From positions 512,001-576,000 of the forward strand of contig CAWHVC010000003.1 of NCBI GenBank assembly GCA_963832745.1: a DNA stretch of 64,000 nucleotides. The letters run 5' to 3'. A model generated the notes under the pieces. That model made no database searches, was not told the origin of the DNA, and saw only the letters and a program-made list of their open reading frames with translations. Source of the DNA: Candidatus Bathyarchaeota archaeon. Its GTDB lineage: Archaea > Thermoproteota > Bathyarchaeia > Bathyarchaeales > Bathycorpusculaceae. Position numbers and translations under genes: made by a program. Positions 18,400 to 20,262 of the stretch are shown here, one piece after another. Within the stretch, counting starts at the first letter, position 1. Each line of letters begins with the position of its first letter.

Positions 18400-19839
18400 T
18401 TATTCTGTGTGGACTCTGTATAAGTCTACGTCTTCGCGCATGCTTGGTGTCAGTTCAAGGAAGTCCCGTACTGACCGTTCAATGTCTTTTGATTGTGTAA
18501 CGTACCTACCGACGATAAGAATGTCTGCACCTTTATCCAGTGCTTCTTTGGCTGTTTCTGGAACAATTCCGCCTGCAACTGCAATTAGGAATTTCTTGTT
18601 AGGAAAAGCTTCACGTATCATTTTTATGCGTTCAAGTCCACTGCTTCTGCCTGTTTCTTGGTCGATGCCTCGGTGTAGGATGACGATGTCTGGGAAGTCT
18701 TTGATTGATTTTAGTTTTGCAAGAACATCTTCAACGTTGAGCATGTCGATGACTGCGTAGGTTCCTAAGCGTCTGGCTTCCTGTACGGTTGCGTCAAGGG
18801 TTTCTGCTGGTGCAAGGCCTGCTGCGACAACTGCGTCTGCTGTGTCTTCATAGGCAATGTCTACTTCAACTTTGCCTACGTCGAGTGTTTTGAGGTCTGC
18901 GATTATGAATTTGTCTTTGGCGATTTCGCGGATTTCGTTGATGACTCTTGTGCCGTAACGTTTGATAAGTGGTGTTCCGACTTCAAGAATGATTCTGTCG
19001 CTTCCTGGCAACTCGGAAATGACTTTCTTTGCTGCTTCTATATTGGGTGCGTCAAGTGCAATTTGTAGGTATGGTGGTCTCCATAGGCGTGGAACTTTAA
19101 AGCCCATAATTGGATGCTTTGCGCGGTCTTTATCATAGTTAATTTTTTCTAATGATGGATACTTCTTGAGTGCACGTTGAAGCGCCATTTTTGTTGCGCC
19201 GTAATTGTACTGGTAGATTTTGCGGTAATCGGTTGCTTTTGGATGAATAAAGACGCTTGCGATGATTACCCACTCATCAAGTTTCGATAGAGGGATTATG
19301 CCTTCTTCTGCGGCGTCTGCAACGGCTTTGGCTACTGCAGCTTGTGCTGGACCAAAGATTTTGCCTGTGTCTTCCATGTTTTTAACTGTGACTTTTGGAA
19401 CGATTAGTGTGTGTGGTTTAGGTGGTAGGTTGGGGCGGATAACTGCGAGCAGTGGTGTGTGGCCTGCTGATAAGCTTGCCATTCCGGTTGCGAAGGCTTG
19501 ACCGACTGGTCCGCTTTTATCGCCAATCATGAGGTCAACATGTGCAACTTCGTTTCCTTCTCCTAACAGTGATTCACCGATTAAGTAGGTGGGGCCTGAA
19601 AATTCTTCGTCTTTATTATTTTGGGTCGGCATACAGTCTATAATCTCCTTGAAATCGACATTAAATTCTTTTAGCCAAGAATAAAGGGTGTCTCTATGAA
19701 TGTCCATTTCCTTGGCGGTTCCGATTATTGTCGGTTTTGTCGGTTTATTTTTGGTTCCGGTTTCTCGTTGGGCTGCTTGAAGAACTACTTTGATAAATTC
19801 TTCCTTTGTGGATGGCTTTTTAACATCTATTCCCGACAT
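18400..19839 (-). CDS. fae-hps: bifunctional formaldehyde-activating enzyme / 3-hexulose-6-phosphate synthase with extra N-terminal HTH
   Basis: Fae motifs (GESLLGEGNEVAHVDL, GHTPLLAV, FGPAQAAVAKAVAD, YNYGATK); HPS motifs (LQIALD, EVGTPLIK, ADLKTLD, LHRGID, AVAGG, VGR); N-terminal IIGTAKEMDIHRDTLYSWLK. Start placed at MSGID. Confidence 0.92.
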   Translation of the reverse strand: MSGIDVKKPSTKEEFIKVVLQAAQRETGTKNKPTKPTIIGTAKEMDIHRDTLYSWLKEFNVDFKEIIDCMPTQNNKDEEFSGPTYLIGESLLGEGNEVAHVDLMIGDKSGPVGQAFATGMASLSAGHTPLLAVIRPNLPPKPHTLIVPKVTVKNMEDTGKIFGPAQAAVAKAVADAAEEGIIPLSKLDEWVIIASVFIHPKATDYRKIYQYNYGATKMALQRALKKYPSLEKINYDKDRAKHPIMGFKVPRLWRPPYLQIALDAPNIEAAKKVISELPGSDRIILEVGTPLIKRYGTRVINEIREIAKDKFIIADLKTLDVGKVEVDIAYEDTADAVVAAGLAPAETLDATVQEARRLGTYAVIDMLNVEDVLAKLKSIKDFPDIVILHRGIDQETGRSSGLERIKMIREAFPNKKFLIAVAGGIVPETAKEALDKGADILIVGRYVTQSKDIERSVRDFLELTPSMREDVDLYRVHTE

Positions 19840-19946
19840 TAATTTACCTTCTTCGGCACTTGTATTTAACCGAATATTTAAGATTGTCGGACAGACAGAC
19901 CATTTATTGCCTATTTGCACTCGGTTTATGTGTCGGTTTGTCGGTT
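19729..19946. promoter_or_regulatory. cluster of six TGTCGG boxes around the fae-hps promoter and start
   Basis: TGTCGG at 19729, 19738, 19885, 19931 and 19939, plus an inverted copy (CCGACA) at 19833; TATA-like TTAAATAT (minus) at 19874-19881. Confidence 0.65.
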
Positions 19947-20058
19947 GAACAGTTCCAAGTTTATGGTTGACGCTTAAAGGCTTTTTCTGTTTAACCGTAA
20001 ATCTTTATATCCCGTGTCTTATTGACTTGATAGTCGCATGCAAAAGAGGTAACCTGTA

Positions 20059-20262
20059 ATGTCATGGTCAAACTGGATAAGCGTAATACTTGTCATTGTC
20101 GGCATAGGCTTGTTTCTGTATGGGGCAAACGTTTACGATGCAACCGTCGGCTGGACAGGTTTTTACCTTGGAATCGCCGGCATACTACTCTACATAAGTA
20201 CTTACGTTTATGTTTGGTATAAAAAAAATGAGTCAAAAGAGGCTCCTACTCAGAACCCATAA
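20059..20262 (+). CDS. small two-TM membrane protein
   Basis: Two hydrophobic helices; GAGGT SD; TATA-like at ~20003. Confidence 0.65.
   Translation: MSWSNWISVILVIVGIGLFLYGANVYDATVGWTGFYLGIAGILLYISTYVYVWYKKNESKEAPTQNP

Follow-up and report, generated by a model that had tools for sequence, protein, structure and literature searches.

The window analysed here is a stretch of 64,000 nucleotides (positions 512,001–576,000 of contig CAWHVC010000003.1) from a Candidatus Bathyarchaeota archaeon whose assembled genome is 3,021,879 bp long (3.02 Mb, in 5 contigs). On its minus strand lies a gene for the bifunctional enzyme Fae-Hps, in which formaldehyde-activating enzyme (Fae) and 3-hexulose-6-phosphate synthase (Hps) are joined, and to which a putative helix-turn-helix (HTH) domain is fused at the N terminus. 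Copies of the hexamer CCGACA, or TGTCGG when read on the other strand, are clustered over the promoter and the beginning of this gene. The original prediction, made from the letters of the window, was that the enzyme binds these boxes and regulates its own transcription. The gene and its domains are arranged as follows:

18400..19839, minus strand: the HTH-Fae-Hps gene, from the list of open reading frames (ORFs); 479 aa, stop codon at 18400–18402, conserved ATG at 19839–19837
19630..19839, minus strand: putative N-terminal DNA-binding domain, about residues 1–70
19588..19629, minus strand: variable acidic linker from the HTH to the Fae core, about residues 71–84, from the ortholog alignment and the predicted local distance difference test (pLDDT)
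19105..19581, minus strand: Fae domain, residues 87–245 (Pfam PF08714, E 1.6e-68)
18463..19074, minus strand: Hps domain with the fold of orotidine monophosphate (OMP) decarboxylase, residues 256–459 (Pfam PF00215, OMPdecase, E 3e-34)

The ORF is open on the minus strand from 19920 to 18400, and the conserved start was assigned from the orthologs, to which the protein is 65–97% identical. An internal start at Met72 was rejected, since the orthologs have I, T, V or S at that position. The protein scored 578.7 bits (cut-off 274) with the NCBIfam model of bifunctional Fae-Hps, PRK13307 (NF009833), residues 85–478 covering positions 2–390 of the 392 in the model. Because this match begins at residue 85, the first 84 residues are extra, which bears out the approximately 80 additional residues first proposed ahead of Fae; the Pfam Fae domain begins at residue 87. 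In an alignment of 37 orthologs, the linker that follows the HTH varies in both length and sequence, and the pLDDT falls below 50 at residues 72–82. Structural matches were found for both enzyme domains: Fae matches PDB 1y5y (E 1.2e-41; 2 entries with 10 chains together, 5 chains each), and Hps matches 9lj9, 3f4w, and 3ajx, all hexulose-6-phosphate synthases. Judged by these matches, the enzyme part looks like a canonical Fae-Hps. It is also the sole copy, as only one Fae-Hps match was obtained in this genome, which is 99% complete; from this and from its identity to the orthologs, it is predicted to be catalytically active.

The extension is, as modelled, a small tri-helical HTH and a conserved domain. 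In an alignment of 37 diverse N-termini (A1), the residues P9, A22, P36, T37, G40, H48, R49, D50, T51, W55, V61, and F63 are invariant. The AlphaFold model (pLDDT 67) places helices at residues 12–29, 38–44, 49–58, and 63–69; the basic linker between the first two ends in the invariant P36-T37, and the recognition helix would be 49–58 (HRDTLYSWLK), opened by the conserved HRDTLYxW. The best 50 rows of a fold comparison with VIA-align were almost all HTH DNA-binding domains, among them those of AraC, sigma-28, TetR, NtrC1, and the P22 small terminase. The domain had been described as a Fis-like HTH, and here the two parts of the description came apart. The conserved motif, the AlphaFold helices, and the structural neighbors agree with an HTH; the likeness to Fis was not upheld, since Pfam HTH_8 (PF02954, Fis/NtrC-type) gave no match at E up to 1 with either the full protein or residues 1–85. 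The NtrC1, NtrC4, and Fis domains are among many tied HTH rows in the fold comparison, so that a likeness to Fis may exist at the level of the fold but is not specific.

Residues 1–85 scored 18.1 bits with GP3_package (PF16677), for which the cut-off is 29.4, and the A1 profile found P0161 (E 1.5e-06), a protein that is a clear PF16677 member (77.3 bits) with the motif IPTIAGLAHFLGIHRDTVYAW. A search of PDB profiles with A1 gave only weak rows, the best being the phage protein 2ao9 (E 0.073). By sequence, the nearest relatives outside Fae-Hps thus appear to be the phage gp3/small-terminase and transposase-type HTHs (HTH_23/HTH_28). No paralog of the domain was found in this genome. A 153-aa protein in the representative library (P0135) has the same HTH N terminus (KPTISGTATLLGVHRDTLYAWLKEFHVDF) followed by a non-Fae C-terminal part; it may be incomplete, and the domain may also be fused to another protein in this case. 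Four further library proteins of 409–641 aa (P0139, P0140, P0145, and P0149) carry 6–8 tandem units of related short HTHs (...AEIAKKLGITxxTLYRYLRxxNVP...) and match many Pfam HTH families.

The survey of orthologs that had been called for found the fusion to be conserved across one order of the class. The whole protein as query gave a match in 38 of 41 related genomes; the full-length rows start at query residue 1–5, contain no internal stop, and come from the same genus and from at least 8 genomes of other families of the order, the latter at 65–69% identity. With residues 1–85 alone, matches were obtained in 127 of the 401 genomes sampled from the class, almost all of them in open frames of about 480–550 aa. 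By family, these were 94/103 genomes of f1, 10/11 of f6, 18/18 of f7, 2/2 of f3, 1/1 of f2, and 1/2 of f19; as the f19 genome belongs to another order, the HTH type is nearly confined to one. The Fae-Hps core itself is present in 220 of the 401. Against 5.8 billion proteins, residues 1–85 gave 404 matches, and among the matches listed (120) all carry the Fae Pfam domain and almost all OMPdecase; the source names of the listed relatives read only "bifunctional enzyme Fae/Hps". An 89-aa frame in one genome (G025) was considered as a stand-alone HTH protein and rejected, because the frame stops at the contig end and is therefore a cut gene.

Other arrangements of the same enzyme were met along the way. 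Several genomes of the order have a second, Fae-only match (query residues ~86–245, 47–53% identity) within open frames of ~495–545 aa (G025:C31, G036:C196, G026:C20, G029:C84, G037:C55, G032:C83, and G039:C58), in which the Fae domain is part of another, larger protein. In one genome of the same genus (G015:C19:114072-115214), the match to Fae-Hps is fragmented, contains several TAG/TAA stops, and looks like a pseudogene or a poor assembly. In the PDB, residues 124–286 of chains named "Avd" (8ub7_B among them; 9 entries with 45 chains together, each of 290 aa) resemble the Fae domain of the window's protein (E 2.4e-41). In this solved assembly of five chains, a Fae-like domain thus follows a different N-terminal part, and the fusion may be natural or engineered.

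In archaeal promoters, transcription factor B (TFB) reads the B recognition element (BRE) directly upstream of the TATA box, and transcription starts ~25 bp downstream of TATA. The boxes of the window and the promoter elements are located as follows:

19931..19944, minus strand: boxes A'1 and A'2, tandem CCGACA, 54 and 46 bp upstream of box A, between divergent promoters
19885..19890, minus strand: box A, CCGACA, 3 nt upstream of the TATA box, at the BRE position
19874..19881, minus strand: TATA box, TTAAATAT, from the sequence; orthologs have TTAAATA/TTATATA adjoining box A
19833..19838, plus strand: box B, inverted, TGTCGG in gene orientation, over the start codon and 52 bp from box A
19729..19743, minus strand: boxes C1 and C2, a CCGACA pair 9 bp apart in the coding sequence (CDS), 147 and 156 bp from box A
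20097..20102, minus strand: a seventh CCGACA, 212 bp upstream of box A, within the divergent 67-aa ORF; its membership of the array is doubtful

In gene orientation, the order is thus CCGACA-aa-CCGACA, 40 bp, CCGACA-atc-TTAAATAT, 34 bp, A-TGTCGG, 89 bp of coding sequence, and CCGACA-aaa-CCGACA. Box B shares its TG with the ATG at 19839–19837, so that A-TG-TCG-G reads as Met, Ser, and a codon starting with G, and boxes C1 and C2 encode the P-T of KPTKPT, directly ahead of HTH helix 2. The six TGTCGG hexamers reported within ~220 bp are all present, five on the plus strand (19729, 19738, 19885, 19931, and 19939) and one on the minus strand (19833–19838). The second copy of the A' pair occurs only in the closest relatives (L002 and L035), and a copy 198–202 bp upstream of box A only in close relatives (L002, L003, and L035).

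The divergent ORF (20059..20262, plus strand, 67 aa) is membrane-like and has a TATA-like word of its own, ATATAAAGAT (read on the minus strand), at 19995–20013. The 219-bp intergenic region is common to both genes, with the upstream CCGACA pair between the two promoters, and this layout is conserved in the genus.

Over the full length of the window, the hexamer shows no enrichment (23 copies; shuffle mean 17.4, with 11 of 100 shuffles reaching 23), and in the genome it occurs 964 times in 3,021,879 bp, that is, 0.32 per kb or 0.07 per 220 bp. The cluster of 6 in 220 bp is nevertheless the single genome maximum, the best window elsewhere holding 3, so the signal is in the clustering, not in the word. 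By a Poisson estimate, such a cluster would be expected ~1e-5 times genome-wide, an optimistic figure, since it treats the two tandem pairs as independent, which they are not. A scan of the genome for clusters, also suggested at the outset, led back to this gene only: the remaining 3-copy clusters all lie inside coding regions, and no other promoter with a box cluster, as a wider regulon would have, was found in this genome. CCGACA lies 1–4 nt from a TATA-like word at 3 sites in the genome, and only here does it stand ahead of a gene in promoter form. A gene for 6-phospho-3-hexuloisomerase (TIGR03127) was searched for as well, with no match above the cut-off in this genome.

Both promoter boxes are conserved at fixed places among the orthologs that carry the HTH, as the original prediction would have it. 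For 122 distinct HTH-bearing loci, most from one genus or family, there was enough upstream sequence to score them. An exact CCGACA was found 1–5 nt upstream of TATA in 117 of the 122 (box A; the others are ACGACA in 2, CCGGCA in 1, TCGACA in 1, and none found in 1), and TGTCGG covers the start codon in 115 (box B). The distance between the two ranges from 51 to 55 bp (51 bp in 11 loci, 52 in 39, 53 in 44, 54 in 19, and 55 in 2). When the promoters of 37 diverse loci, whose N-termini are 42–71% identical, were aligned as a profile, the conserved blocks were CCGACA and TATA only, and not the flanks; an extended box consensus drawn from the flanks is about ATCCGACA.

Boxes B and C lie over codons, and codon choice can be compared there. 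The second codon is TCG at 66 of the 68 loci (33 of 35 diverse ones), although TCG makes up 6.5% of the Ser codons in the genome; the third residue can be G, E, D, or V, amino acids whose codons all begin with G. Codon usage would give CCGACA at P36-T37 in 4.6% of cases; it is present at 57 of the 70 loci (24 of the 37 diverse ones). As controls at invariant residues in the same 37 loci, P9 is CCG in 7/37, T41 is ACA in 14/36, and T51 is ACA in 14/37; with these codons mixed, synonymous sites are otherwise scrambled. This codon comparison shows the box codons to be held as DNA at synonymous sites in the CDS.

The other boxes also keep their places. Many loci of the same family as the window have a CCGACA 50–55 bp upstream of box A, and family f6 has an extra CCGACA 95–102 bp downstream of box A, in another reading frame. 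Taken together, the box classes lie ~85, 74, 54, 31, and 22 bp upstream and 53, 97, 147, 156, and 168 bp downstream of box A, all near multiples of 10.5. For 111 further boxes in the 37 diverse loci, the Rayleigh R was 0.67 at a period of 10.5 bp versus 0.10 at 10.0 and 0.07 at 11.0; the 35 upstream boxes alone gave 0.74, against a maximum of 0.50 in 5000 random sets. Inherited positions inflate this statistic, and still about ten distinct positional classes agree.

It had been proposed that the boxes would accompany only the versions of Fae-Hps that bear the HTH, and this is what the comparison yielded: intact boxes in 0/3 copies with the HTH lost or degenerate, 0/8 without an extension, and 0/9 with a ribbon-helix-helix (RHH) extension. 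The loci fetched without the HTH number 20 (9 RHH, 9 with no extension, 1 with a third head, and 1 in genome G159). In G159, which belongs to the same genus, the HTH has been deleted in frame, and MSGTEVKKPENR is joined directly to ASGPTYLIGE; the TATA of this locus is intact, while box A has become CCGGCA and box B TGTCAG. A second Fae-Hps copy in G017 (L088, G017:C94) has a degenerate HTH (KLT for KPT, QLDT for HRDT) and no boxes, and a second copy in G006 (L089, G006:C58) has neither HTH nor boxes. The upstream regions of L088 and L089 are strongly G/T-rich, unlike those of the main copies, and the two may come from a co-binned different organism.

The sequence of the boxes follows residue 54, the sixth of the recognition helix. 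Where this is Arg (HRDTLY-R-W), ACGACA/TGTCGT was found in 5/5 loci, two or more times in 4/5, compared with 25/116 and 1/116 of the others (counted from -140 to +60 relative to box A). In a fresh sample of 20 loci, the lone Arg54 locus (L203) has five ACGACA-type boxes, box A included, and the other 19 have the CCGACA type.

Two unrelated N-terminal domains were found on the same enzyme. The RHH-type extension (9 loci: L091, L094, L097, and L102–L107; consensus GLVRAPGRITxEQYRFLEExVxxGRFGSVSEAVRAAI) belongs to other families of the Bathyarchaeia, being present in 40 of the 401 genomes of the class and in 0 of the HTH order. Its assignment comes from ParD_antitoxin, with 22.2 bits for L094 (cut-off 21), from RHH_1, with up to 20.0 for the others (cut-off 20.5), and from matches of the RHH profile (A2) to the ParD antitoxins 3kxe (E 7.2e-05), 7b22, and 8c24. 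All 9 of these loci have GTGACAC/GTCACA boxes, and 0/9 have CCGACA; a proximal box pair lies ~33 bp upstream of TATA, with a distal copy 51–52 bp further up in 6/9. The third head is a different HTH (Sigma70_ECF, 22.6 bits at one locus, cut-off 21.1), present in 2 genomes of family f17, at loci L214 (G051) and L215 (G073), as two copies that share 47% identity. GCCGCA/TGCGGC boxes surround TATA at both loci, where one box immediately follows it on the 3' side. At the Fae-Hps genes without extension, of which 8 of the 9 loci were scored, neither the CCGACA nor the GTGACAC word was repeated. In the loci compared, therefore, each type of N-terminal domain goes with its own box word at the Fae-Hps gene.

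From these observations, it is highly probable that the HTH fused to the enzyme recognizes the boxes and regulates the promoter of its own gene, with binding as the predicted step. The boxes are conserved, are lost together with the HTH, vary with it, and are unique in the genome, and in this sense the enzyme as autoregulator of its own gene, the core of the original prediction, is supported by the sequence comparison. The HTH would read the word (AT)CCGACA, on an array that would present one face of the DNA upstream of the promoter, against TATA at the BRE position, over the start codon, and within the codons of the HTH itself. Fae is a homopentamer, in agreement with the five chains in each solved entry, and Hps-type barrels dimerize. 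As an oligomer, the enzyme would therefore bind at several boxes, probably cooperatively, and five or more heads would fit an in-phase array of single boxes.

As to the direction of control, a conserved GAGG stands ~9–12 nt ahead of the ATG, and together with the position of TATA this implies a short leader, which puts box B at about +15 to +20 from the inferred transcription start. Protein bound to boxes A and B would then keep TFB, the TATA-binding protein (TBP), and RNA polymerase off the promoter. Because box A lies on the BRE and box B just past the start, our preference goes, with moderate confidence, to negative autoregulation, Fae-Hps being a trigger enzyme and a predicted repressor of its gene. 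The enzyme would link 3-hexulose-6-phosphate and ribulose-5-phosphate to formaldehyde, and formaldehyde to methylene-tetrahydromethanopterin (methylene-H4MPT), and one of its substrates or products may modulate binding. That the signal would be formaldehyde, H4MPT, or a sugar phosphate, as the original prediction had it, we purely infer. The accompanying idea that the oligomer loops the promoter and the intragenic sites together is only suggested, by the 10.5-bp phasing and the ~52-bp spacing.

Several points weigh against this interpretation. The HTH is weak when judged by a single sequence (residues 1–85 with HTH_28, 21.5 bits; cut-off 25), and HTH_28, HTH_29, HTH_23, and GP3_package all stayed below their curated cut-offs on the N terminus. 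Foldseek with the model of the domain gave nothing at E <= 0.001 in the PDB, the VIA-align scores of the best 50 rows (Z 6.1–4.6) lie in a range, Z <= 6.1, that the tool itself calls common, and the pLDDT of 67 is low. Box B is missing in 7 and an exact box A in 5 of the 122 loci; as most of these come from one genus or family, the counts overstate independence. The Arg54 rule is imperfect: in L203, box B is still TGTCGG and the CDS still contains CCGACA, while L023 is mixed. Because the HTH type forms one clade and the RHH type another, independent events are few, about 3 gains, 3 losses, and the appearance of Arg54 in four families. A second TATA-like word, GTTAAATAC (19862–19870, minus strand), lies 12 bp downstream of the first and is found only in the closest relatives of the window (the L001–L005 group), so that the promoter geometry and the transcription start given here for this genome are provisional. 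Finally, one RNA run held a small share (0.04) of the words, its contigs stemming from relatives (57 of the 67 are less than 90% alike). Positions 18400–19767 are covered by them and 19768–20100 by none, and, being contigs, they can show neither the start nor the level of the transcript.

With the same HTH reading the same boxes, the enzyme might instead activate its promoter, or act both ways, by ligand-dependent recruitment of TFB/TBP from the upstream boxes. The archaeal riboflavin kinase regulator RbkR, the closest archaeal precedent, is proposed to activate and then to be deactivated by the product (PMC5397151, available text), which counts against repression here, and for this reason activation is kept as the main rival. 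Boxes also stand 31, 54, or 74 bp ahead of box A in many loci, and the proximal operator of the RHH type, ~33 bp upstream of TATA, is at a typical activator position. However, conservation is lower in the upstream boxes than in A and B, and the best-conserved boxes lie on the BRE position and the start codon, where sites usually block TFB/TBP or polymerase. We consider activation rather unlikely.

The boxes could also be operators of a separate transcription factor, the HTH of Fae-Hps serving for protein–protein contact or unspecific tethering to DNA. Such a reading would sit well with HTH scores that are sub-threshold and with a link between HTH and boxes that is comparative, but deletion or degeneration of the HTH goes with decay of the boxes (3/3), and the box sequence follows residue 54. 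At the same gene, moreover, three N-terminal domains go with three box words, and a separate factor would need to be exchanged in step each time. A separate factor therefore seems improbable.

Slightly less probable again is that the HTH binds the array with no role in transcription, parking the enzyme on DNA or nucleating a structural complex. The many phased sites, reaching ~150 bp into the CDS, do exceed what a simple operator needs. Tethering, however, predicts many sites in the genome, and the array is found only at its own promoter in 3 Mb, with the two best-conserved boxes bracketing the core promoter.

Last, the hexamers might act in RNA, through UGUCGG-CCGACA pairing that affects translation, or as a plain promoter or translation signal such as the BRE of the lineage, which we regard as close to negligible: boxes B and C are indeed both transcribed and complementary, but box A and the upstream boxes lie before TATA, the array follows the 10.5-bp period of DNA, the 156-nt leader-plus-CDS RNA folds no better than its shuffles (z = -1.16) and in the predicted fold does not pair B with C, so that pairing of box B with box C is not supported, and CCGACA as a general BRE was rejected, with only those 3 genome sites beside a TATA-like word, fewer than for many permutations of the same letters (up to 6).

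Returning to negative autoregulation by Fae-Hps, a more elaborate form of it may be advanced tentatively, as a possibility that we rather doubt. A step of ~52 bp is common to the HTH-type and RHH-type promoters, which hints that the enzyme scaffold sets the spacing. A pentamer-based oligomer with several heads could then bind in-phase boxes from ~85 bp upstream to ~170 bp downstream of box A, at a scaffold-set step of ~52 bp, so that the promoter and the first 150 bp of the gene would be wound on the enzyme that they encode, a self-wrapping trigger enzyme. Occupancy would depend on formaldehyde and pentose-phosphate status, and the same enzyme would have acquired three unrelated heads in different lineages. 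If true, it would mean strong, repeated selection for self-control of the step that supplies ribulose-5-phosphate and releases toxic formaldehyde.

Trigger enzymes are few, and Fae-Hps would be one in central carbon and one-carbon (C1) metabolism. The Bathyarchaeia are an abundant class, represented here by metagenome assemblies, and to our knowledge almost nothing is known of their gene regulation. Three unrelated domains fused to the same enzyme, each with its own operator, amount to a natural replicate, and this repeated fusion speaks for a need to control the Fae-Hps level tightly. With operator copies in the CDS, the regulator would constrain the synonymous codons of its own DNA-binding domain. 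The databases name only a "bifunctional enzyme Fae/Hps", and the putative regulatory domain goes unannotated. The case is directly testable with one protein and a single piece of DNA of 220 bp: residue 54 is predicted to determine specificity, and the opening letter of the box is the base concerned.

Among known systems, canonical methanogen Fae-Hps (PRK13307) matches the core end to end, and its model has no room for an N-terminal domain of 84 residues. The gp3/small-terminase HTH, nearest by sequence, sits in terminase; that of the window is fused to an enzyme and falls below every Pfam cut-off. Our full-text literature search, which covered neither subscription journals nor supplements, found no paper on a DNA-binding domain in Fae-Hps.

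PutA of Escherichia coli and Salmonella offers a parallel: this catabolic enzyme is likewise large and oligomeric, its DNA-binding domain is N-terminal, and it acts as a repressor of its own (put) control region via several short sites. Five such sites, GTTGCA, are attributed to it, for which we found no supporting paper. It joins an N-terminal RHH to proline dehydrogenase and pyrroline-5-carboxylate (P5C) dehydrogenase, so that the RHH-type Fae-Hps resembles it even in the type of domain, whereas the window protein has an HTH. PutA differs in being bacterial, in its redox- and membrane-dependent switch, and in its unrelated enzyme chemistry. Together with BirA, NadR, and RbkR, it is among the trigger enzymes described in PMC5397151, in which an enzyme with a DNA-binding domain regulates its own pathway; in the available text of that article, all those listed belong to vitamin, cofactor, or amino-acid metabolism.

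BirA and NadR likewise have an N-terminal HTH fused to an active enzyme, the ligand of which is the co-repressor (PMC5397151, available text). They differ in serving vitamin and cofactor metabolism and in binding as dimers to a single palindromic operator, and no sequence relationship was found between them and the HTH of Fae-Hps.

The likeness to RbkR goes further. According to the same text, this metabolic enzyme of archaea likewise carries its DNA-binding domain at the N terminus, and its operators were predicted from genome comparisons; the regulon includes its own gene, its operator motif varies by lineage, and the DNA-binding domain has been lost in some lineages (PMC5397151). In contrast to Fae-Hps, RbkR has a winged-HTH-like domain on a vitamin kinase, binds palindromes as a dimer, and controls a multi-gene regulon; its binding, its ligands (cytidine triphosphate and flavin mononucleotide), and the structure of its DNA complex are experimentally established (PMC5397151), whereas the case for Fae-Hps comes from comparison of sequences. 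Fae-Hps would use a small tri-helical HTH, single words of 6–8 bp, and a phased array that runs into the CDS, at its own promoter only. Fusions of enzyme and regulator are thus known as such; what sets this case apart is a C1 and central carbon enzyme with a gp3/transposase-like tri-helical HTH, a putative phased single-word operator that extends into the CDS and is carried by its own promoter only, and three unrelated heads on the same enzyme.

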